Assembly: GCA_951406725.2 (NCBI GenBank)
Contig: OX597815.1
Span: forward strand, 47,802,001 to 47,866,000
Source of the DNA: Octopus vulgaris
Lineage: Eukaryota
DNA length: 64,000 bases
Reading direction: 5' to 3'
The notes beneath the pieces are model-generated. The model ran no database searches, had not been told where the DNA came from, and was given only the letters and a program-made list of their open reading frames with translations. Of this stretch, positions 6,099 through 61,699 are shown in pieces. The first letter of the stretch is position 1, and every line of letters starts with the position of its first letter. The translations under genes were made by a program, and so were the position numbers.

Positions 6099-6289
6099 TC
6101 CTGCTTCCGTCTCTAATAGCAAATTATTACTGCTGATTCACGCTGTGTGACACATAAACAGTATATCGTTTACTTAATGAAGCGTCGTATAAAGTACAAA
6201 TATAAAAATTAGGCTACTCACCACTATGATAGTTTAATTGCCAACTGATGTATGTGGGTGTGCAACGAACAAGAACCCGGGACGTTCTC

Positions 6290-7278
6290 TGGTTCCATTC
6301 CACCCTTCGCTATTAATGTCCAGGCTCGAGTACCTAAACTCTTCTTTGCCCTACTCGAAAAACATTTCTCTAAATCTAACCCCGTTACAAAAGTATTTAA
6401 CCCCCAATCTATAAAATTGTTGTACTCCACCACCACCACCAACAACAACAACATTGCCGGAATAATCCGACATCTTAACAACAAGAAACTCGGAAATCCA
6501 CAACCAGCTAACCCCCACCCTAATATCATAGCTCAACATAATCCCCAGTTCCATACATATCAATCCAGAACACTAATTGACCCCATTACCAACACTAACC
6601 CTCACAACTCTAGCTGTAATTCCACTACTAACACCCGCTCCTTAAATTTACCACTTCGCCCAACTATACCTCATGTAAAAATTAAGAACGATACAGACGA
6701 TACCACCGCACATGATAACTATCACATTATACACCCCCACAACGCCATCCTCAACTTCTTAACAAATACTAATCTTAACGCCACCACTAATAACGAACCT
6801 AACACCGGTTCCTCACTAAACAGCAATCCCTGCACAAATTCATCTGGAACTCTCTCTACACACCTATGCAGCTTCAGACGCCCAACCTCCTGTCCTTTAG
6901 ATAATCACTGTCTCACAAAAAAACATCGTTTAAAAGTGTACAGTATCAGCTGCCAACTGTAACTACTTACATAACGGCTCGTGCAGCACCACCTTCAAAG
7001 CCAGAAGGAGCAACCACTACTCCAGTTTCAAGTCCCAAACAAATTCCAACAGCACATCTCAGCTTATTTATAAACTAAAGAATGATTCAACTCCTAACAC
7101 TCTCAAGTGACCCATAGTCACCCAACCCAAACCACACAGTGGCTATAATAACAAGTGTGATCTCTGCATAGCCGGGGTCTTAGCTCTTATGCAATACACA
7201 GATTGTTTTAATGAAAGCAGCAGTACAATCTTTGCCTGCAAACATCGATCAGTAAATCTATTCTCAAAATACAAATAA
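6290..7278 (+). mobile_element. Neptune-type PLE 3' coding half: linker, Cys domain and GIY-YIG endonuclease (pseudogene)
   Basis: ORF 6252-6962 has PPFAINV...LLEKHFSKSNPVTKVFNPQSIKLLYS and CSFRRPTSCPLDNHCLTK. After a frameshift in the poly-A at ~6917 it reads NIV*KCTV...HNGSCSTTFKARRSNHYSSFK, then KCDLCIA...FACKHRS, ending at TAA ~7278. Confidence 0.88.
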
Positions 7279-9239: not shown

Positions 9240-9743
9240 AACTGGTACATATTCTCTCGACCCAAAAAGGATGAAAGGCAAAGTCAACCACGGCGAAATT
9301 TGAGCTCAGAACGTTAAGACGGGCGAAATACCTATTTCTTTACTACCCACAAGGGGCTAAACACAGAGGGGACAAACAAGGCTAGACACACGGATTAAGT
9401 CGATTATATCGATCCCAGTGCGTAACTGGTACTTATTCTCTCGACCCCGAAAGGATGAAAGTCAAAGTCGACCTCGGCGGATTTTGAACTCAGAACGTAG
9501 CGGCAGACGAAATACCTATTTCTTTACTACCCACAAGGGACTAAATACAGAGGGGACAAAGACAGACGAACGGATTAAGTCTATTACATCGACCACAGTG
9601 CGTAACTGGTGCTTAATTTATCGACCCCGAAAGGATGAAAGGCAAAGTCGACCTCGACGGAATTTGAACTCAGAACGTAACGGCAGACGAAATACCACAA
9701 AGCATTTCGCTCGGCATGCTAACGTTTCTGCCAGCTCGCCGCC
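9240..9743 (-). mobile_element. tRNA-derived SINE family B, multimeric copy (~2.7 tandem ~183-bp units)
   Basis: Head GGCGGCGAGCTGGCAGAAACGTTAGCA and B-box GAGTTCAAATTCC. The unit GAAAGGATGAAAGGCAAAGTCGACCTCGGCGG occurs three times. Confidence 0.9.
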
Positions 9744-9989
9744 TTATAAATCTGTAACATATTCTTTTCATTGACACTCACTTGTGCATACTGATATTTA
9801 TTAATTCATTTATTTATTTATTTTTATACAGCTAAATAGGAATGTTTCAGTAATTGATAATATTTTGCTTCGATCAGCCCCTTTACATATCATTCAATGC
9901 ATCACATTTAATTTATTTATTCATGCCATTATTCCATTTGAATTATCTCCCCTTCTAACATCATTTTGTTAGCTTTTGTTAGCTTTCCT

Positions 9990-13419: not shown

Positions 13420-14017
<598 letters not shown>

Positions 14018-14404
14018 TATATATATACATATACACAAACACACACATACTAGTACACTATATGCGTGTATGTGTAATATATATGTGTGTGTGTGCGTGT
14101 GTGTTTGTGTGTTTGTGCCTCTCTCTGTGTATGTATGTGTGTGCCCGCGCGTGTATGTATGTGTATGTGTTTGAGTTTCTGCTTGTGTGCGTGAGAGCGC
14201 GCGGACGATTTAGCAGACATGTTAGAGCATTGGATAAATTCCGTTCCGGACATCAATGTTTTGAGTTCAAATAACTGAGTTCTTACATAAAGCACTAATC
14301 TTCTTCTGAGGTCTACTCTTCTCTCTCACACACAGTCTTCTTTCCTTTCCCTTTCTCTCTGTCTGTCTCTCTCTCTTCCCCCCCTCTCTCTCTCTCTCTC
14401 TCTT

Positions 14405-15434: not shown

Positions 15435-15921
15435 GGATCTTTTCGGTTTGAACGGCAGTTTTTTCTAGCGGTGTCATATGAAATTGTCACCCATAATTAT
15501 GACCCTAGTATCGATCTATTGCCTTTCAATCTATTACAGGGTTAGGGTTAGAGTTAGGGTTAGTTAGGGTTAGTTAGGGTTAGTTAGGGTTAGTTAGGGT
15601 TAGGGTTAGGGTTAGGGTTAGGGGTGGGGGAAGGGTATCTTTTTTTCTTCACAAATGTAAATAAATCCAATCTGTTTCTTAAACGAGGGACATTTTCATA
15701 CGGCACAGAATGTTTTCACCTCAATACATGTCATTGATTGGTTGAAATTGCAGAAATTGAAGAAGAAAAAACAACAAATATCTTACAAACTATAGAATTT
15801 TCTCAATAAAGCCAAGAGAAAAAGATGTTTTATAAACGCATTCTACCAGTATACGAAGTTTAAAAGTGCTTAGTTACGCGGAAATTATTTTTTTAAACTG
15901 CCGTTCAAACCGAAAAGATCC
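15435..15921. mobile_element. MITE with GGATC termini, 27-bp TIRs, 8-bp TSD and an internal (TTAGGG)n tract (Merlin-like)
   Basis: TIRs are GGATCTTTTCGGTTTGAACGGCAGTTT and AAACTGCCGTTCAAACCGAAAAGATCC. TSD GTTTCCAA at 15427-15434 and 15922-15929. Telomeric repeats at ~15538-15622. Confidence 0.92.
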
Positions 15922-17668: not shown

Positions 17669-17859
17669 CTCTTTTTTCTTTTTTTCTCTTTTTTACTTGT
17701 TTCGACCCTGGGACTTATTCTTTGTAAGCCTAGTACTTATTCTATCGGTCTGTTTTGCCGAACCGCTAAGTGACGGGGACGTAAACACACCAGCATCGGC
17801 TGTAAACACACCAGCATCGGCTGTCAAGCAATGCTAGGGGGACAAACACAGACACACAA

Positions 17860-17935
<76 letters not shown>

Positions 17936-17966
17936 TCAATATAGGGTGGCAAAAAATTTTGTAGAA

Positions 17967-18006
<40 letters not shown>

Positions 18007-18171
18007 TACGACAGGCTTCTTTCAGTTTCTGTCTACCAAATCCACTCACAAGGCATTGGTCGGCCCGGGGCTATAGCAGAAGACACTTGCCCAAGATGCC
18101 ACGCAGTGGGACTGAACCCGGAACCATGTGGTTGGTTAGCAGGCTACTTACCACACAGCCACTGCTGCGCC
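17669..18171 (-). mobile_element. SINE family A, near full-length
   Basis: Reverse complement of the family A head ends at 18171. Contains an internal duplication of GTAAACACACCAGCATCGGCT and a central (TA)n. Confidence 0.9.
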
Positions 18172-18400
18172 TTTATCTTTATCTTTTACTTCTTTCAGTC
18201 ACTAGACTGCGGCCATGCTGGGGCACTCCCTTGAATTTTTCTTAGTCAAATGAACCGACACCAGTACTTCTTTTTTAAGTCTGGTATTTATTCTATAGAT
18301 CTCTTTTGCCGAACCGCTAAGTTACGGAGACACAAACACACCAACACGGGTTGTCATGTGGTAGTTGGCGGACAAACACAAAGACACAAGCACATACATA
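18172..18400 (-). mobile_element. SINE family A 3' half
   Basis: GACTGCGGCCATGCTGGGGCAC...CTCTTTTGCCGAACCGCTAAGTTACGG is the reverse complement of the family A tail. Confidence 0.8.
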
Positions 18401-18418
18401 CATACAAACATACATACA

Positions 18419-18452
<34 letters not shown>

Positions 18453-18457
18453 CATAC

Positions 18458-18515
<58 letters not shown>

Positions 18516-25871: not shown

Positions 25872-25977
25872 TAACCCTAACCCTAACCCTAACCCTAACC
25901 CTAACCCTAACCCTAACCCTAACCCTAACCCTAACTAACCCTAACCCTAACCCTAACCCTAACCCTAACCCTAACCC

Positions 25978-26018
<41 letters not shown>

Positions 26019-26460
26019 CCCTAACCCTAACCCTAACACTAACCCTAACCCTAACCCTAACTAACCCTAACCCTAACCCTAACCCCTAACCCTAACCCTA
26101 ACCCTAACCCTAACCCTAACCCTAACCCCTAACCCTAACCCTAACCCTAACCCTAACCCTAACCCTAACCCTAACCCTAACCCTAACCCTAACCCTAACC
26201 CTAACCCTAACCCTAACCCTAACCCTAACCCTAACCCTAAACCTAACCCTAACCCTAACCCTAACCCTAACCCCTAACCCTAACCCTAACCCTAACCCTA
26301 ACCCTAACCCTAACCCTAACCCTAACCCTAACCCTAACCCTAACCCTAACCCTAACCCTAACCCTAACCCTAACCCTAACCCTAACCCTAACCCTAACCC
26401 TAACCCTAACCATAACCCTAACCCTAACCCTAACCCTAACCCTAACCCTAACCCTGACCC
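25872..26460 (-). repeat. Interstitial telomeric repeat array (TTAGGG)n, ~580 bp
   Basis: (CCCTAA)n on the + strand with occasional CTAACTAA, CCCCTAA and CCTAAA variants. Unique sequence on both sides. Confidence 0.98.
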
Positions 26461-26617
26461 TACATCATTGTAAACCAAGAACATCAGAAGATAAGTCGTT
26501 AACAGCAATATGAAAGATGTTACTCCTCGGCTCTGAAACCCATCATTATAAAAACACCACCAGCTATACACCTCTCGTTATATTGAAATACACCATTAGC
26601 TATAACTCATTTTAAAA

Positions 26618-26772
26618 TTATTTACATTATTTACAATTGACGGATATTTGTCCTCATCTTGTTTGTTGTTAACACAACGTTTTGGTTAATATATCCTCCA
26701 GCCTTCATCAGGTGTCTTGGGGGAAATTTCGAACCTGGTTTCTCATTCCTAAGGTATTTTTCAATGCTATTA

Positions 26773-26835
<63 letters not shown>

Positions 26836-26906
26836 TCACTATCTGGAATCGAAATCGGAATCTTGGGGTTAGTAGCCTGCGCTCTTAACTACTGCGCCAT
26901 ATGCCC
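26618..26906 (-). mobile_element. tRNA-headed SINE carrying (AAT)n and a hammerhead motif
   Basis: Minus strand: tRNA-like head GGGCATATGGCGCAGTAGTTAAGAGCGCAGGCTACTAACCCCAAGATTCCGATTTCGATTCC, then (AAT)n, an HHR at 26671-26716 and tail TGTAAATAATGTAAATAA. Confidence 0.82.
26671..26716 (-). ncRNA. Minimal hammerhead motif inside the SINE (GAAA mutated to AAAA)
   Basis: GACAC-CTGATGA-A-GGCTG..TAACC-AAAA-CG-TT-GTGTT, with stem I GACAC/GTGTT. Confidence 0.72.
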
Positions 26907-26933
26907 ACGAGCATATGGCGTGGTAGCTAAGAG

Positions 26934-27864
26934 TACTGCGGGTGTGGCAGCACTTCCCAGCCGTGCGTTTGAATGGCTTCCTTGGTCATATTGGCGATAT
27001 GAGGGCGGGTGCTGTCATGCAGCAGAACTCCATGCTGCCGATTAGGTCTTTTCTCTTGAATAGCCGTGTTGAGTTGTTCCATCTGTTGAACATAGAGCTC
27101 CGCGTTGACCATTTGGTTCTGTTCAAGCAATTGGTAATGGATAATCCGTTCCTAGTCCCACCATACGCACAACATCGTTTTACGCGGATGAAGATCTTGT
27201 TTCACGCGCGGTGTCGCTTGTTTACCGGGGCTAAGCCATTCCTTACACTGCTTCATATTGATATACAGGCACCATTTTTCGTCACAAGTAACGATTCTGT
27301 AAAGAAATCGTTGCTTGTGTCCATGAGTTGAGCGGTGACGAGTAAGTAAACCAGCGGAGATTGTGGCTCGTTGATTTTTGTTGTTGTCTCTTAAAGCATG
27401 CGGAACCCATGCTCCGTACTTCTGAACCTTTCCCATCGAGTGAAGACGCTTCTATATAGCAGTGTGATAGCATTCCATTTTTTCTGCTAGTTCCCTTGTC
27501 GTTTGACGAGAATTTTCACGCAAAAGTTGGTTTAATCACTCTTCATCGAACTCAAATATCCATTTTTGAACTTGGCATACCAATCACGAGCGGTTCTTTC
27601 AGCTAAAGCACCCTCTCCATACACAGCACAAATGTCGTGAGCAGCTTTTGCGGCCTTAGAACCTTGATTAAAAGCAAAAAGGAGGTGTCGAAAATGCTCG
27701 TGTTTCTTAACTTGACATTCCATTTTAATGATCTCAAAATAAACAAAAATTCACTAGAATTAACTAGAAAAAAAATAGATTCCAAAATGATTCAAAAACA
27801 GAATTCTCGAAAAAAATAAATTCCAAAATTTAAAAAAACAGCGGGAACTTAGTTACCAACCCAA
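26934..27864 (-). mobile_element. Mariner (Mos1-like) transposon, frameshifted and 3'-truncated
   Basis: Fragments MECQVKKHEHFRHLL...TARDWYAKFKNG, WVPHAL, RIVTCDEKWCLY, KTMLCVWWD, LLHDSTRPH and GWEVLPHPQYS. One TIR (..AACTTAGTTACCAACCCAA) followed by TA at 27865. Confidence 0.95.
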
Positions 27865-27999: not shown

Positions 28000-28081
28000 C
28001 TCTCGACACATGTTTCGAAGACAGCATATTTTCATGCCGAAGGAATAATGGCTGCATTATGCAATCTTCTCATCGGGAAAA
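28000..28081 (-). ncRNA. Hammerhead motif, left arm (CCGAUGA core variant, intact GUC)
   Basis: TTTC-CCGATGA-GAAGA...TCTTC-GAAA-CATGTG-TC-GAGAG. Confidence 0.75.
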
Positions 28082-28222
28082 GAAAAGGAGCCTCTCTCGA
28101 CAACAAGACAAACAAAAATTTCGATGATTGCCTACATGGTAACCAAACCATTATCGCTTTGGTTACCATGTAGGCAATCATCGAAATTTTTGTTTGTCTT
28201 GTTGTCGAGAGAGGCTCCTTTT

Positions 28223-28304
28223 CTTTCCTGATGAGAAGATCGCATAATGCACCCTTTATTCCTTCGGAATGAAAACATGCTGTCTTCGAAACATGTGCCG
28301 AGAG
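28223..28304 (+). ncRNA. Hammerhead motif, right arm (intact CUGAUGA, cleavage triplet GCC)
   Basis: CTTTC-CTGATGA-GAAGA...TCTTC-GAAA-CATGTG-CC-GAGAG. Confidence 0.75.
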
Positions 28305-28508
28305 TAAAGAAATTTTGTTAACATCTTCGTTCGACTCCATTCTTTCATTTATTCATATACAACACACAAATTTCTACACATGAACCCGGAGTTTCTACCC
28401 TTGACAGGTCGCTTCAACCGTGTTTTCTGACGTGAATTTGCTACCCAGGTTTCGGTTAAACGAATTTTCCATGCTGACGATAAACATAGGATAATTCATT
28501 CACCTACT

Positions 28509-29464: not shown

Positions 29465-29884
29465 GGCGGCGAGCTGGCAGAAACGTTAGCACGCCGGGCG
29501 AAATGCTTAGCAGTATTTCGTCTGCTGTCATGTTCTGAGTTCAAATTCCGCCGAAGTCGACTTTGCCTTTCGTCCTTTCGGGGGCAATTAAATAAGTACC
29601 AGTTACGCACTGGGGGTGATTATAATCGACTTAATCCATTTGTCTGTCCTTGTTTGTCCTCTCTGTGTTTATCCCCTTGTGGGTAGTAAAGAAATAGGTA
29701 TTTCGTCTGCCGTTACGTTCTGAGTTCAAATTCCGCTGAGGTCGACTTTGCCTTTCATCCTTTCGGGGGTCGATTAAATAAGTACCAGTTACGCACTGGT
29801 GTCGATACAATCGACTTAATCCGTTTGTCTGTCCTTGTTTGTCCCCTCTGTGTTTAGCCCTTTGTGGGTAGTAAAGAAATAGGT
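29465..29884 (+). mobile_element. SINE family B, dimeric copy with TSD
   Basis: Head GGCGGCGAGCTGGCAG and two ~185-bp units. GGTAACACTCTAGTTT is repeated at ~29444 and ~29882. Confidence 0.93.
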
Positions 29885-30291
29885 AACACTCTAGTTTTAA
29901 TATATTTTAAACTCCTAAAACAAAACTAAATAAAAGCTAAGAACAATTTTTTTCCCCAAAAAGTTTATACTACAGCATTTTGCAACTTGGTAAAAAGTAG
30001 ATTCTAAAGAAATACCAATGGGAACTCTGAAACGAAAGAAAATAATAACCTCTAAAGCATCAGTAGAAGAATTAAATTATGCTTGTCAAAAAGAAGTGAA
30101 GTAAAATCAAGGGTGAAACAGAAAGTAATGCAAATAAGAATTGCATTACTTTCTGACTCAGCTTCGTATGAGTCGTCCACATAGAGGCAAAAGAAACCTA
30201 ATCGCATTTACATTTTCGAGAAGTATCATGAGTGCACTTCAAGTATCCTCGTAGCTCAGGCCCAAGATTAACTTAACGCCATCATGGCAAA

Positions 30292-41487: not shown

Positions 41488-41866
41488 TATTAAGAGAAAA
41501 CTGGAAAATGTACCTAGACGATTGTTTTATCATCTGGAATGAAACCTATGATAAACTCCTGGATTTCAAATCCACACTGAACAATATAAACTCCAATATT
41601 TAATATACAATGGAATATAGCAAGGAACAGCTCCCATTTCTGGACATTTTGATTACAAAAATATCCAACGACCAAATTACAACTGATATCTACTACAAAC
41701 CAACAAACTCAAAACAGTATCTCCTTCATGACATCCTAAACACACCAAAATAAATATCCAGTTCAATCTAGCTAAAAGGATCTGTACAATTGTATCTGAC
41801 ACAACCACTCGGAAATTTCACCTACAAGACCTCAAGATAACACTCATTGAACGTCAATACCCACTC
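41488..41866 (+). mobile_element. Penelope-like element reverse transcriptase fragment
   Basis: WKMYLDDC, TLNNINSNI*YTMEYSKEQLPFLDILI, TTDIYYKPTNSKQYL, HPKHTKINIQFNLAKRICTIVSD and LIERQYP are typical PLE RT/thumb motifs. Confidence 0.9.
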
Positions 41867-41968
41867 GCACAGTCCTGGATGACAGTTCTGAAAGCCAAAG
41901 CGAAAGAACGCCCCAAGCGAATACCATTACAAAATTTTTGGGGAATGCATTCAACGTATCTCAGCTCC

Positions 41969-45486: not shown

Positions 45487-45695
45487 CTTTCTACTCAAGG
45501 CACAAGGGCCGAAATTTTTTTTTGGGGGGGGGGGCTAGTCGATTAGATCCACCCCAGTACGCAACTGGTACTTAATTTATCAACCCCGAAAGGATGAAAG
45601 GCAAAGTCGACCTCGGCGGAATTTGAACGCAAAGACAGACGAAATACCTCTAAGTATTTCGTCCTGCGTGCTAACGTTTCTGCCAGCTTGCCGTC
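45487..45695 (-). mobile_element. SINE family B variant
   Basis: GAAAGGATGAAAGGCAAAGTCGACCTCGGCGGAATTTGAAC...GCTAACGTTTCTGCCAGCT. Confidence 0.88.
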
Positions 45696-45871
45696 TTCCA
45701 TTCTTTATATATTGATGTATGATACAGTTACAGAGAGTTCTAGTTGCTATTTCTTGTAGGTTGGACGGTCAAGGAGAAGCCTGGAATATTTGATCGACCA
45801 GTCGTCTCATTAAAAGTTCTCTGACAGTGGCCATATACAGTATATTTCAGAGCATATTACCTACCCCTCTA

Positions 45872-47360: not shown

Positions 47361-47691
47361 GCTAGTATTTATTGCGTCGGTATATGTAGGATAAATTTAT
47401 GTATGTACATGTTTGTGTTAATAAGTGTTTGGCCCAAGTGGCCGGAGAAAATCTTTTCACTCACGTAACTGCTGTCGCTTACTAAGCGATAGTATATCCA
47501 TCGTGACATCATGTGACCAATTGCACTCCACCTACCAGTAAACATCTTGGACTTCCTGTATCTCTCCGTTCATACGGATTCTCACCAACCTGAGGAGATA
47601 GTCTCCGTTAAGGGCTTCGAAACTTGAAATAGCACAGAATCCGATCAAACTATTTTGAATATTGTATATAATATAGATATCTATATCTATA

Positions 47692-47740
<49 letters not shown>

Positions 47741-47763
47741 ATATATATATATATATATATATA

Positions 47764-48121
47764 GGCGCAAGCGTGGTTGTGTGGTAAAGAAGCTTGCTTC
47801 CCAACCACATGCGTGGCAGCTTGAGTCAGTCTCCTTTTCTATAGCTTCGAGCTGACCAAAGCCGAGTGGATTTGGTAGACGGAAACTGAAAGACGCCCAT
47901 CGTATATATATATGTATATATGTATATATTTGTGTGTCTGTGTTTGCCCCCCCCCCCTCCCGCTCGACAACCGATGTTGGTGTGTTTACGTCCCCGTAAC
48001 TTAGTGGTTCGGCAATAGAGGCCGATAGAATAAGTACTAGGTTTACAAAGAATAAGTCCTGGGGCCGATTCTTTCGTCTAAATGAATGGCCGCAGTCAAA
48101 TGACTGAAGCAAGTAAAAGAG

Positions 48122-48122
<1 letters not shown>
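47764..48122 (+). mobile_element. SINE family A
   Basis: GGCGCAAGCGTGGTTGTGTGGTAAAGAAGCTTGC...ATGACTGAAGCAAGTAAAAGA. Confidence 0.9.
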
Positions 48123-48158
<36 letters not shown>

Positions 48159-51495: not shown

Positions 51496-52049
51496 TGTAT
51501 GTATGTATGTGTCATAAGTGTGTGTATGTGTTTGTGTGTGTGTGTGTGTGTGAGTGTGTGTGGATCCCCTACTACTTGTACATAACCAAAGCACACCTCC
51601 TCTATCTAATCTATTCCTCTGCCTCACTCTCCGCTCCCATTGCTACCGTTTAAAGGCCAAGTGTCAATCCCACTTTCCAACCACCTCGCAACCTAGCCCC
51701 TACTAACAAGTGCCGTCCATCCGCCATCCACCTGTTTCGTGACCTTACACAGTAGAATACGCTGTTGTTCATCACTACCACCACCACCTCCACAACCAGC
51801 TGACAAGGATGCTGTACGTGGTTGTTTCACTTTCTAGAAATAGCAGTCGAATCTCGAATCTCCTTCAAACCACACCTTACTGAGTTGAAAATGCACAAAG
51901 GCATGGCTTGTGTGCTAAGAAGCTTGCTTCCCAACCACATGGTTCTATAGCATGGCACTTTGGGCAAATGGTTTCGACTAAAGCCTTGGGCTGATCAAAG
52001 CTTTGTTAATGGATTTGGTTGATGGAAAGGTTGTGGGGGCCACATTTAA

Positions 52050-52282
52050 GGCTGCGAGCTGGCAGAAACGTTAGCACGCCGGGCGAAGTGCTTAGCAGTA
52101 TTTCGTCTGCTGCTACGTTCTGAGTTCAAATTCCGCCGAGGTCAACTTTGCCTTTCATCCTTTCGGAGTCGAGTAAATAAGTACCAGTTACGCACTGGGG
52201 TCGATATAATCGACTTAATCCGTTTGTCTGTCCTTGTTTGTCCTCTCTGTGTTTAGCCCCTTGTGGATAGTAAAGAAATAGT
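52050..52282 (+). mobile_element. SINE family B monomer (further degraded copies at 52405-52600 and 52777-52950)
   Basis: GGCTGCGAGCTGGCAGAAACGTTAGCACGCCGGGCG...TAGTAAAGAAATAG. Confidence 0.9.
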
Positions 52283-53007
52283 TGCGGGTGCCACAAACAC
52301 AGACACACATACGCGCGCATACACAGACACACATACATGTGTGTGTGTACGTGCGTGCGTGCGTGAGTGTGTGTGTGCGTGTGTGTGTGCGTGCGTGCGT
52401 GTGTGTGACAGAATCCTTAGCACGCTGGGCAAAATACTCAGCGGCATTTGGTCCGTTTTTACATTCTGAATTCAAATTCCGCCGAGGTCGACTTTGACTT
52501 TCATCCTTTCGGAGTCGATAGCAATTGAGCACTGGGGTCGATGCAATCGGCATAACCCTCCCTCAAAATTGCTGGCCTTGTGCCAAAATTTGAAATCAAT
52601 ATTTTCGGCTGGAATTCAAGGATTTACAAGCTTTAGAACCACTGAACTAAATAACAAGAACCTACACGAGCTGCCACTATGATCAATGCCATCACCGTTA
52701 CCACAACCTTGAAAAGTAACATTAACACCCAATACTCTAACATTATCATCAAACAACCAATATTAACAGCGACGAAGGCGACGAGCCGGCAGAATCGTCA
52801 ACACGTAGGGGGAAAATGCTTAGTCTTTACTTTCTAGGTTCAAATTTCGCCGAGGTCAAGGTCGATAAAATAAATAACAGTTGAGCACTAGAGTCGATGT
52901 AAGTGATTTGCCCCCTGCCCCGAACTCGCTGGCCTTGAGCCAAAATTTCAAGCTAATATTAATAATGACCACAATGCTTACTCCGTGGGCCAAAGGCAGG
53001 TATTCTT

Positions 53008-53978: not shown

Positions 53979-54038
53979 TGTATGTATGAGTGTGTACACA
54001 CACACACACAAACACACACATATATATATGTATATATA

Positions 54039-54175
54039 GGCGCAGGCATGAATGCGTGGTAAGAAGCTTGCTTCTCAACCGCATGCTTCTGGGTTCAGTC
54101 CCACTGGGTGGCACCTTGGTCAAGTATCTTCTTCTATAACCTCGGGCCGACCAACAACTTGAGTGGATTTGGTAG

Positions 54176-54246
<71 letters not shown>

Positions 54247-54482
54247 TATATTTTTGTGTGTCGGTCATTGTGACTGTTTGTTCCCCTCCCACCGTCGCTT
54301 GACAAACGATGTTGGTCCGTTTATGTCTCCATAAATTTGCGGTTCTGCAAAAGAAACCGATAAAATAAGTACCAAGCTTACAAAGAATAAGTCCTGGGAT
54401 CGATTTGCTCGAATAAAAAGGCAGTACTCCAGCATGGCTGCAGTCAAATGACAAACAAGTAAAAGAATAAAAGAATAAAGAA
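54039..54482 (+). mobile_element. SINE family A full-length
   Basis: Head, CACCTTGGTCAAG core, (TA)n and tail (AAAGAAT)n. Confidence 0.9.
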
Positions 54483-56090: not shown

Positions 56091-56308
56091 CTTTTCTACT
56101 CTTAAGGCACAAGGCCTGAAATTTTCAGGGAGGGGCCACTCGATTAGATCGAGCCCAGTACGCAACTGGTACTTAATTTATCGACCCCCGAAAGTATGAA
56201 AGGCAAAGTCGACCTCGGCGGAATTTGAACTTAAAACATGAAGACAGACGAAATTCCACTAAGCATTTCGCCTGGAGTGCTAACGTTTCTGCCAACTCGC
56301 CACCTTAG
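56091..56308 (-). mobile_element. SINE family B variant with 14-bp TSD
   Basis: CACTGAAGAATATC occurs on both sides (~56077 and ~56309). Confidence 0.92.
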
Positions 56309-58037: not shown

Positions 58038-60590
58038 CAGTAGCGGATCTACCATAAAACTAATGAAGCTGAGCTTCAGGGCCCCTAATCTAGGTGGGGA
58101 CCCTCTGAAGCAACTTAATTTTTTCATTCTAACAATTTTTTCGTTTTTGTAATTTGCCATGCAGATTGTTGTTATCATACTCCTATGCAGAATCTAGACA
58201 CGCTGTCTAGCCAAGAGTTGTTCACCTGTTGTTTCTGCCAGTGTGGAGTAGCATAAAAAATAAAAGTACAAACGGCTCTCAGATAATTTGCTTTACTTGA
58301 ATTACTTTGCAAACTTCCTTGTCAAATATGTCTACTACTATATCAGCATGGTAGAGATAAGAATTCTTATTTTCACACCGTTACGTTATGACCAATGAAA
58401 GGGTTTGGCTCCTAATTTTGGACTTACAATCTGTTCAGTAACAAAGCACTTTTTCTACTTTAAAAATTGTTTCAATATCATCTTATACAAAATGAACAAT
58501 TCTTCATTTTATGATTATATATTAAGTTGTGGGGCCTTATCTTGATCGATCTCTGTCTTGTTGTGGCTAATGAAAATATTACCCCATTTTTTTTTCACGG
58601 AGGTCTAGACCCCAAGAGGAATAGCAATGTCTTTAAGAAAGTACTTAAGCGTATACCAGAAAGGCTCAACTCAAAGAAAAGCAATCTAACGAAATTTCTA
58701 AATGTCAAAATCTATCAAACTATTTTGCAATATCAAGTAAAAGTTTGTCATCACCTGCAACTGAAACAAACCATGCAAGCACCAGTGAAGTCAATGAAAG
58801 TGCACAAACCATGAGCACTCTGTTTAGCAATATTCAAACCTACTGTTGACACTTTAGGTGCAGATGATGATCACAGTGATCAAGAACTGCAAGAAAAGAG
58901 AGAGAGCAGAAAAACGAAGCAAATTTAGTGATTGCAAAGAATACTGTGACCTGGCAAACTGGCCTGTAACAATTGATGATGATTTCATACAAAACTGTTT
59001 AATGCAATACATCAGGGGTTTTTTTTTCAAAATAAAAAAAAAACAGATAATGTATATAATGAATCCAATAAGATTTTAAAATAGCAAAATCAAAGTTTCA
59101 CAAACAAGTACTTTGAAAATAAGATTGAAAAATTCTCAGCCTGTGGTGAGATCCTGGTTAGTTTACTCAAAGAGTAAACTCTTTTCTACATGCCAAATAT
59201 CACTTACAACAGGTGGGTTTTCTGATTGGATGAATATATTCAGAACTCTAGAAAATCATGAAGACATCATGGAACATAACGGTGATGTTGAGCTAGCTAA
59301 CACAAAAGTCAAATAAAAACACTGTGGATCAGCAACTTGAGGAACAGTTAAGAAAAAACATGCAGTACTATTTTGAAGTACTAAAAAGAGTTATAAAGTG
59401 TTTAAGTGCAAGAGGTTTAGCATTTAGAGGTCATGAGGAAAAGTGGGGCTCCCCAAACAATGGAAATTTTAAGGGGGACCATCGTGCTTAGTGCGGAATT
59501 TGGCCCATTTTTACATGAACATTTAGAGAAATGTAAAAATGAAAAAGTAAACATTACTAACCTATCCAAATCTGTGTATGAAGAATTGACAGAAATCATG
59601 GGAAAACATGTGAAAGATGAAGTGGTGAATCAGATCAACAACCTAGACACCAAATACTATACAATTATAGTTGACTCCACACCTGACGTGACACATGATG
59701 ACCATCTAGTAATTGTGGTTCGATAATGGAAAGCCAATGCGAGAGATTTTTAGCATTTTTTCCAATCGAAAACCATTCATCCACGATCTTGTTCAACAAA
59801 ATAACACAATTTCTGGGCGAGCATAAGCTTTCACTTAAAAATATCCGTGATCAGTCATATGATAATGCTTCCAACATGAAGGGCTCGGAGAAAGGGCTGC
59901 AAGCACTTCTTAAAAACATTAACAGGTATGCAGACTATATATCATATGGAAGCCATTCACTCAACTTTGTTTGGTAAAAGGCAGTGTCTACTGTACCCCA
60001 AGTAGCTGTATGTTTTCTTTTCTGAATTTCCTCGAAGATGGGGGATTTTGGACACATAGGGCAATCTAACCTTTTCTCAAAAGAGCTTAAAATGTAACTA
60101 GAAGGTCTGCACATTATGAAGCAGTTCGGGCAATTAAAATGGATATAGGGGTATTTTGTAAACTCTCAAACATATGTTTGAAGACTCAGGAGAGAAGCCT
60201 GAATGTAAACGAAATGCAAAAATTTATACCACAAGTTGGTAAAATTGGTATATGCTGTTTTAACAATCAATTGGGAAGAAGTTATGGAGCGTTTTAACAA
60301 AACAAGTAAGAAACTCCAAACCCCTGGTTCTGATGTATTTGAAGGTTATGAACAACAGTTAATTGAAGTGTCCCCTAATATTACCACTGCGCATAAACTG
60401 TACTTGATAATGCCTATCACGAGCTGTGAAGCAGAAAGAAGTTCCTCAAAGCTTTCCTTTGTAAATAATAAATTTTGATCTACCATGACTACAGAGCACT
60501 TAAATTCCTTATGCATATTGATTCCGAAAAATGACATTGCAAAGAAACTGTCATGTGACAAAACTGTTACTACAAAAAACAGAAAAAAGA
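58038..60590 (+). mobile_element. hAT transposon (ZMYM1/DUF4371-like transposase), heavily disrupted
   Basis: Left end CAGTAGCGGATC. Fragments DLANWP, RSWLVYS, GFSDW, LAFRGHEE..GSPNNGNF, IIVDSTPDVTH, CERFLAF, QSYDNASNMKG and PITSCEAERSSSKL (dimerisation domain). No right TIR visible. Confidence 0.92.
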
Positions 60591-60599
60591 GTATAGACG

Positions 60600-60776
60600 A
60601 CAGGCGTGGCTGTGTGGTGAGAAGTTTGCTTCACAACCACACGGTTCCGGGTTCAGTCCCACTGTGTCACCTTGGACAAGTGTTTTCTTCTATAGCCTCG
60701 GGTCGACGAAAGCCTCGTGAGTGGATTTGGTAGACGGAAACTGAAAGAAGCCTGCCGTATATGTATAAAAATATAC

Positions 60777-60857
<81 letters not shown>

Positions 60858-61052
60858 TTTGTCTCTATGTTTGTCCTCCACTACCGTTTGACAACCGGTG
60901 TTGATGCGTTTTTGACCCAGTAACTAAGCGGTTCGACAAAAGCGACCGATAGAATAAGTACCAAACTTTAAAAATATATAAGTCCTGGGGACGATTCATT
61001 CAACTAAAGATTATTCAAGGTGGTGCATCAGCATAACCGCAGTCTCAAGACT
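60600..61052 (+). mobile_element. SINE family A full-length
   Basis: CAGGCGTGGCTGTGTGGTGAGAAGTTTGC...AGTAAAAGATAAAA with a central (TG)n. Confidence 0.9.
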
Positions 61053-61699
61053 TAAACGAGTAAAAGATAAAACATGAAGGTTTCTCTCTTTTCTTTATCT
61101 ATACGTCTATATCACTATTCCTCTATATATCTGTTTATCTATCTATCGCCTGATATATTTTCCTTCTTTTTCGAAAGATACAAAACACTTAACAACAACG
61201 ATTAACATGCGCGCGCACCTGCTCAGGTGCATACACGATATATTTATATTTCGTAAACTTCAAATTGGCTATCCATCCACCTTCCCACTCCTTCAAACAG
61301 GGAAAATTTCAGTAAGACACGTATTGTAAGGGATTTATTGTTTGAGCTGTTTCTCCTATTGCTAGAGGTTGTTCTAGGACACAGGTGGAGAGATGGATAG
61401 AGGCGAGAGGGGATGCAGAAGAAAACTCAACTAAGAAGCGATAGAGATTACTTGACCTACATTTGTAGGAGAGCGGCTTCAAGTACAGTCGACTAGGGGC
61501 TTTTCTTATTTGTGGGGCGGTGAAAGAGTATGACTACCCAAAACTTAATTTTTGATGTAGCATCTGGTTGCGTGGTTTTGTTGCAAAGAAGCCACAGTCG
61601 TGAGATTCTGGGTTCAATCCGAATGCAAGGCAGGAATCTTGAGCATCTTCCACAACATTCTCGATTCAACCTGAATTTTGAGAGTGGCAATGTGTTAAT

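Follow-up and report, generated by a model that had tools for sequence, protein, structure and literature searches.

The window analysed here is a 64,000-nucleotide (64-kb) stretch of Octopus vulgaris DNA (contig OX597815.1, positions 47,802,001 to 47,866,000), and on its minus strand lies a short repeat unit of 291 bp (26906–26616) whose insertion target was a mariner transposase remnant. The first-pass annotation had proposed a unit of about 290 bp made of a tRNA-type head, an (AAT)n run, a minimal hammerhead ribozyme and a short repeated tail, directly abutted by an inverted copy of its head. Motif scans recover the A and B boxes and the hammerhead, and this layout largely holds; a 3′ segment exists but is a fixed sequence and not a simple repeat, and the inverted head copy is genuine (21 of its 25 positions are identical) but is set off by a 2-nt spacer rather than being in direct contact. 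The features, from the mariner side to the far flank, are these:

26930..27740, minus strand: mariner transposase remnant, the insertion target (recognised by translation)
26909..26933, plus strand: inverted copy of head nt 1–25 (21/25 identical to 26906–26882; hairpin z −6.8)
26907..26908, no strand assigned: 2-nt spacer between the head copies
26832..26906, minus strand: tRNA-type head of 75 nt (motif scan)
26899–26889, minus strand: A box (motif scan)
26856–26845, minus strand: B box, 32 nt from the A box (motif scan)
26768..26831, minus strand: internal (AAT)21 run, separating head from body (21.3 copies)
26717..26767, minus strand: middle segment of 51 nt, within the high-copy body (contig depth)
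26671..26716, minus strand: minimal Penelope-type hammerhead, type I (motif scan, majority letters, published consensus)
26616..26670, minus strand: fixed 3′ segment of 55 nt, reaching to the main 3′ end of the family (depth step and loose ends)
26463..26615, no strand assigned: single-copy AT-rich downstream flank, outside the element (depth 36–52 up to 26594)

The A and B boxes of the head form a pair that is unique in the 64 kb on both strands, and 30 first-order Markov simulations yielded the pattern 0 times on average, a lenient control as the pattern was fitted to this element. Neither Rfam nor ARAGORN called a tRNA in the head, and no tRNA match to it was found in phage records; lowering the ARAGORN thresholds returned only noise (164 matches per window at -ps70), and a 230-bp ARAGORN test gave no match on the strand of the head. 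We use the label 'tRNA-derived' because of the A and B boxes, their spacing and the length of the head, and we infer from the same sequence features that the head contains a Pol III type 2 promoter; it may resemble a eukaryotic threonine tRNA. The unit lacks a T4 run, and its sense strand has no run of four Ts ahead of the 3′ end. BLAST and nhmmer found no second copy of head or body within the 64-kb window, and the locus holds a single unit and no tandem of full units. The (AAT)n run is internal, and the 3′ terminus carries no simple-repeat tail; the apparent repetition within the tail depends partly on the letter at 26622, where the loose-end consensus and 45% of RNA reads have another letter.

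The hammerhead motif comprises a helix I of 5 bp (26716–26712 paired with 26675–26671), CUGAUGA at 26711–26705 with a single unpaired A behind it, a helix II beginning with two G–C pairs, and a palindromic ACGU with a GUU cut triplet, placing the predicted cut between 26676 and 26675. Helix II has a C–A mismatch (26701/26686) in this copy, and AAAAC stands where GAAAC is expected, the G12 position (26683) being an A through a change that falls at a CpG. With its core broken in this way (GAAA to AAAA) the ribozyme of this copy is probably dead, as had been suspected, and cofolding of the damaged copy formed no hammerhead dimer. The relaxed motif occurs 0 times per 64 kb in 30 Markov simulations, and the Rfam hammerhead models gave no match to it; helix III is absent, unlike in canonical retrozyme hammerheads. 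Elsewhere in the window the minus strand holds two further minimal hammerheads of Penelope type, whose helix II sequences differ from this one, one with an intact core (35507–35481) and one that is decayed (about 35853–35830); neither has an A/B pair of the same pattern upstream.

We compared sequencing data at 80% likeness with positions 26463–26798, which cover the downstream flank and the body, the AAT letters being skipped. The data comprise three DNA runs (contigs X1, X2 and X3; organisms A, B and C) and one raw RNA run, four of the 24 listed; runs X15–X20, with shares of 0.09–0.11, were left out. The X1 contigs have 0 differences from the flank and may come from the source of the window itself. 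Contigs from organisms A and B carry the insertion junction. In organism C (X3) a contig follows 26465–26613 and then continues for 1,307 letters without the element, which is likely an empty site. A connection between the insertion and the neighbouring (TAACCC)98 array (25872–26462) was considered and rejected, as the array lies 153 bp away and looks younger than the insertion because contigs of organisms B and C cross the place for 1,713 and 553 letters respectively; it may be a recent lineage-specific gain. A shorter interstitial TAACCC array is located at 15594–15623.

Over its last 51 codons the mariner remnant matches the transposase chains of SETMAR and Mos1, with E values from 2e-8 to 1e-6. 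Its reading frame breaks off behind the codons HPQYS, at the YSPDL motif, the rest of its 3′ part was not found on the far side of the insertion, and the outer 3–4 nt of the inverted head (26930–26933) overlap the Tyr-Ser codons as microhomology. Just upstream of the mariner remnant there is also a near-perfect inverted repeat at about 28030–28350 (centre 28152, arms 24/25). The window has arms as good as those of the head copies at 3 further places, and the inverted copy carries weight because its match begins exactly at the first base of the head; for the same reason, head and body appear to have acted as one template here. A proposal that the four differences between the head copies reflect two templates is unsupported (P = 0.29 under about 11% expected decay). 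The longest word common to the two flanks is 5 nt and lies away from the junctions, and because the flanks share no junction word we conclude that this copy has no target duplication, in agreement with the first-pass annotation for this copy. The inverted piece is non-canonical, since it copies the 5′ start of the element and not the 3′ end.

Summed contig depth, which is not the same as copy number, is of the order of 10^6–10^7 on the body (about 26615–26762) and 36–52 on the flank in all three DNA runs, with body/flank ratios of 84,000–99,000 in the middle bin (26727–26738) and 124,000–237,000 at the tail peak. This shows that the body belongs to a very large family, its depth exceeding that of the single-copy flank about 10^5-fold. 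Most family letters, in shares that are biased by the reference copy, restore G12 (68, 69 and 72% in the DNA runs and 74% in RNA) and helix II (26686 at 86–95% and 26688 at 95–97%), so that the predicted return of CAGCC and GAAA in a consensus is borne out; the CUGAUGA/GAAA core, the loss of which had been named beforehand as evidence against the reading, is present in the majority. Together with the majority letter at 26694 (84–90%), these letters give a helix II of 6 bp and a full fit to a published consensus for the minimal hammerheads of metazoan Penelope-like elements (PMC4209133), and the free position N7 varies in 8–14% of DNA depth. That Penelope-type consensus consists of helix I, CUGANGAH, a G...C helix II, GAAAN, a palindrome and NUH; the majority fits it throughout and the copy in the window departs from it at G12.

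An alternative explanation is that the high-copy family is no more than a Penelope 3′ end-piece (a pseudo-LTR) or a headless non-autonomous derivative, next to which the tRNA-type head happens to lie locally or with which it forms a minor chimera. As an example, a Penelope nuclease could have hit an ATT-rich target, here the AAT tail of a short tRNA-derived repeat, and a target preference for ATT has been published (PMC11167929). The family-wide measurements concern the body only, solo minimal hammerheads from truncated Penelope copies are published as frequent in animal genomes, and the two other minimal hammerheads of the window occur without an upstream A/B pair. The tail is moreover deeper than the middle segment, 2.4–2.5 times in X2 and X3 and 1.25 times in X1, and therefore many copies may be 5′-truncated or share the tail only. 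An insertion into an AAT repeat would nevertheless be expected to leave AAT repeats 3′ of the element, and there are none 3′ of this copy or in the loose-end consensus; the inverted copy begins at the first base of the head, and the unbroken 1,307 letters of the organism C flank contig argue against a young repeat having been present before the insertion. Octopus database records may also contain this head linked to this body by a shorter AAT run. We consider a headless family unlikely.

The breakpoints of the long body pieces bear on the same point. All 21 of those listed end no more than 37 letters from the AAT-side edge, and 8 of the 21 extend for more than 300 letters on the tail side, these being the longest of 60,806 pieces (24 of which are listed) and the AAT run by itself being able to break pieces. 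Because long pieces stop at the AAT side but run on at the tail side, the DNA ahead of the body is probably repeated and not unique flank. Translated-ORF searches for head and body within one record gave no match that covered the head (0, 1 and 0 plus 2 distant matches), and pattern scans of metagenome, viral and prokaryote contigs did not find the element. The one named protein match, a predicted Octopus bimaculoides isoform (P0005, XP_052830334.1) that fits an octopus-like host, takes its first 25 residues from this repeat, its start codon being an AUG inside the hammerhead core, and it reads SRN where this copy would encode NQN, which fits an intact GAAAC; this may be exonisation of the repeat or an artefact of the gene model. 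Two other translated records (P0003 and P0004, from ENA contigs of 216 kb and 70 kb) are ORFs read antisense across tandemly repeated copies of a related module of hammerhead and tail, with 23 and 3 units and periods of about 42 and mostly 57–59 codons respectively.

Depth falls stepwise at 26616–26617, the main 3′ end of the family, and all four runs contain two classes of end: copies that pass straight into varied AT-rich flank (26617), and copies with a common extension (26616) of about 26–30 nt or more, the visible length of the extension being limited to 30 letters. Direct and extended contigs number 371 and 171 in X1, 485 and 149 in X2, and 364 and 128 in X3, and the corresponding RNA reads number 615 and 1,025. 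The optional extension of about 30 nt is missing from the copy in the window. Nine letters of the extension are complementary to 26651–26659, as judged by eye, and the long form could thus fold a stem around the main end. Among the joints listed, whose directions were judged by eye, there are one tail-out inversion contig and two go-back joints. The former (X1, depth 76) joins two 5′-truncated pieces at 26749/26670, and one of the go-back joints (26716 to 26643, depth 1,523) places the hammerhead and part of the tail in a partial tandem with two hammerheads 74 nt apart.

The two classes of end match what is known of Penelope elements, copies of which may carry an optional tail of 30–40 bp between two start sites of reverse transcription (PMC11167929, PMC8557442). 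In the Anolis element PAc, reverse transcription has two start points within the RNA, one lying 85–92 nt past the hammerhead cut; the nuclease favours ATT, and both strands are cut and extended (PMC11167929). PAc is the one Penelope system tested in vitro; its hammerhead mutants insert normally, so the ribozyme is dispensable for insertion there, and RNA-seq reads of PAc do not end at the cut (PMC11167929). The optional tail and the AT-rich targets are the Penelope 'tail' signature, and the octopus family has both. Canonical Penelope inversions are tail-bearing, 5′-truncated inverted copies (PMC8557442), and the tail-out joint in X1 appears to be one of these. The first-pass annotation had regarded the inverted terminal copy as a Penelope hallmark; one contig of the family appears to hold such an inversion, but the piece at the locus is a copy of the 5′ head.

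It is also conceivable that an ordinary LINE-mobilised SINE captured a Penelope pseudo-LTR as its body and carries the hammerhead as inert cargo. SINEs are defined by their dependence on LINEs, and the source of their bodies is often unknown. In O. vulgaris no repeat class is larger than the LINEs and SINEs (PMC13282606), and searches of the window, proteins and contigs found no partner: an autonomous Penelope with this 3′ module did not turn up in the window, among proteins, or in the viral, metagenomic and prokaryotic contig collections. By the terms of SINEBase the element is shorter than 1 kb, non-coding, interspersed and present in at least 100 copies, the copy measure being that of the body only, but where those terms call for a simple-repeat 3′ tail and a partner LINE it has a fixed 3′ sequence, two end points and no target duplication. 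SINEBase also asks for a family-wide head that is at least 60% identical to a tRNA over 60 nt; the head here shows A and B boxes at tRNA spacing and no match to Rfam, ARAGORN or phage tRNAs. The same fixed 3′ sequence with two end points and neither poly(A) nor a simple-repeat tail, the missing duplication in this copy, and the presence of a tail-out inversion and partial tandem joints speak against LINE mobilisation, which we regard as improbable.

Were the ribozyme to define the ends of the RNA, as was originally proposed, ends would be expected at the cut. No pile-up of RNA ends was seen at 26676/26675 among 6,913 reads of one standard RNA-seq run, of which 6% was read and whose library may hide small RNAs, and depth shows no step at the cut site besides a dip over the private changes of this copy. 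Because the cut site lies 59 nt inside the main 3′ end of the element (230 nt from the other end), and RNA ends are not piled there, we conclude that the ends are probably not ribozyme-defined, and this part of the original proposal is not supported. Reads at the peak are balanced by direction (2,805 versus 2,630), and these equal directions mean that there is no sign of a dedicated Pol III transcript in that run.

The RNA data also bear on whether the element is a Pol III-driven retrozyme similar to Sm-alpha, in which multimers are cut by the hammerhead, circularised and reverse-transcribed, such that the ribozyme sets the RNA ends. The intact core of the family majority and the partial tandem joint with its two hammerheads would suit this, Pol III SINE-like hammerhead repeats exist in Schistosoma (PMC6765202), and animal retrozymes have been argued to come from Penelope pseudo-LTRs (preprint 10.64898/2026.07.22.740005). 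This copy is nevertheless a monomer with both ends away from the cut site, at 59 and 230 nt, its motif lacks helix III, depth does not step at the cut beyond the private-change dip, and end clusters are missing from the one RNA run, with the proviso given above on its coverage and on small RNAs. A retrozyme is in our judgement very improbable.

The unit is one damaged member of a very abundant octopus repeat family, and we favour the interpretation that this family is a SINE with a tRNA-type head, copied and inserted in trans by an RT-endonuclease of the Penelope-like kind and not by a LINE; on the evidence taken together this interpretation is reasonably probable. Most copies likely start with the tRNA-type promoter, and the rear half has a Penelope-type minimal hammerhead motif and end signature. 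What is supported of the earlier idea of a Penelope-mobilised SINE with ribozyme-defined ends is the Penelope 3′ module, with its optional tail of about 30 nt, AT-rich flanks and partial tandem joints, and what is not supported is the role of the ribozyme in making the ends.

Under Penelope mobilisation, Pol III would transcribe the unit from the A and B boxes, and the last ~100–150 nt of the RNA would mimic the pseudo-LTR/ORF-start region to which the Penelope protein binds. The protein would nick AT-rich DNA and start reverse transcription inside uncut RNA, ~59 or ~90 nt past the cut site, and these two starts would give rise to short copies such as this one and to copies with the ~30-nt tail. 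The hammerhead would then be a part of the borrowed module and not the maker of the ends, and could cut only as a dimer. At this locus, we suggest that a second nick was primed on RNA nt 22–25 through microhomology of 3–4 nt and that the first 21 nt were copied: a target end in CTCT would pair with nt 22–25 of the RNA and be extended to its 5′ end, while the first cDNA would run from the tail to the same 5′ end. The two cDNAs would end up in a head-to-head junction, some target DNA being lost and none duplicated. This double-priming geometry is drawn from one locus. Perhaps the palindromic hammerhead could pair two SINE RNAs on a dimeric RT, and this would account for head-to-head double priming. 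A more general statement, for which we would put the chances at about even, is that a tRNA-headed, Pol III-driven SINE present in the order of 10^5 copies in octopus parasitises Penelope through a hammerhead and tail module, which would make Penelope a third class of partner, after LINEs and LTR retrotransposons, for elements with small-RNA-derived heads.

If this is true, a high-copy SINE that uses a Penelope enzyme would widen the LINE-dependent definition of SINEs, and Penelope proteins would act in trans on short Pol III RNAs. The family would supply a natural minimal substrate of about 250 nt with thousands of insertion junctions from which steps of Penelope integration, including the two starts of reverse transcription and the inversions, could be read, and it would bear on the function of the pseudo-LTR hammerhead. 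A sizeable share of octopus repeats may also be mislabelled as plain SINE or as Penelope.

Other repeats in the window include broken reading frames at 41508–41950 and about 6250–7250, both on the plus strand, that have a Penelope-class look by eye (a YLDD RT motif with a thumb, and a linker/nuclease-like piece); Pfam, PDB and Atlas gave no confirmation of them, and no hammerhead of this kind accompanies the RT-like piece near 41.5 kb. One abundant repeat has internal tandem units of 180–185 bp (9240–9746, 29465–29885, 45488–45697, 52047–52584 and 56093–56307), and a further repeat family is located at 13466–14033, 17702–18488, 47665–48138, 54020–54472 and 60586–61072. Octopus tRNA-derived SINEs were reportedly described by Ohshima and Okada in 1994, and we presume that these two families may be among the described octopus SINEs.

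Among recently active insertions in O. vulgaris there are 893 unclassified SINE families, and the same source gives 190 Penelope-like families (PMC13282606); the repeat itself is almost surely already in de novo octopus libraries. A full-text literature search, mostly at title and abstract level and with little coverage of subscription papers, Repbase Reports and Dfam, returned no description of a tRNA-headed Penelope-mobilised SINE or of this octopus element, and the DNA words of the element had no match in the searched paper texts or readable supplements. Within the sources so covered, the individual parts have precedents and the pairing of a tRNA head with Penelope mobilisation was not found described. 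The octopus SINEs OK, OR1 and OR2 (SINEBase, PMC3531059) are likewise short, interspersed and numerous, with an A/B-box head followed by a body, but unlike SINEs of this type the element has no simple-repeat 3′ tail, no duplication in this copy, and a 3′ module of the Penelope type. Their Repbase lengths in RepeatMasker rows are 465 (OK), 484 (OR2) and 1,092 (OR1), against 291 here; this comparison is by length and description, and the element could be identical with one of them.

Precedents from other classes of element are similarly partial. The TRIMp3 elements Helenus, Ajax and Cassandra show that a small-RNA-derived Pol III promoter can sit on an element that is not LINE-mobilised, but they depend on LTR retrotransposons and have LTRs, a PBS, a PPT and duplications of 4–5 bp (Kojima 2024, PMC10886601). 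Non-autonomous Chlamys elements such as MRC1 are Penelope-class derivatives that share the 3′ end of their partner, and in the account of MRC1 neither a tRNA head nor a hammerhead is mentioned in the passage covered (Craig et al. 2021, PMC8557442). Sm-alpha and Sj-alpha of Schistosoma and the animal non-LTR retrozymes are short, non-coding and combine a Pol III-type promoter with a type I hammerhead (PMC6765202, PMC7229834), and dependence on Penelope-like elements has been proposed for retrozymes (preprint 10.64898/2026.07.22.740005). Sm-alpha, Sj-alpha and these retrozymes nevertheless are arranged in tandem, and their canonical hammerheads release monomers and circles, whereas the octopus copy is a dispersed monomer with a minimal motif.

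A close likeness is to the minimal hammerheads of metazoan Penelope pseudo-LTRs, including PAc, with which the octopus motif shares a type I core, a helix I of 5 bp, the unpaired base after CUGANGA, the G10.1–C11.1 pair, and ACGU in place of helix III (Cervera and de la Pena 2014, PMC4209133; Frangieh et al. 2024, PMC11167929). The element differs from a Penelope pseudo-LTR in having no ORF, an A/B-box head and AAT run standing in for the pseudo-LTR/ORF sequence, and what is inverted at this locus is its 5′ start and not a tail-bearing truncated copy. The likeness to Penelope and PAc extends to ends at 59 and about 90 nt past the cut, an optional tail, AT-rich targets, and RNA-seq reads that do not end at the cut (PMC11167929). 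The ends of the octopus element thus follow the Penelope tail pattern, and not the cut site as in Sm-alpha and the retrozymes.
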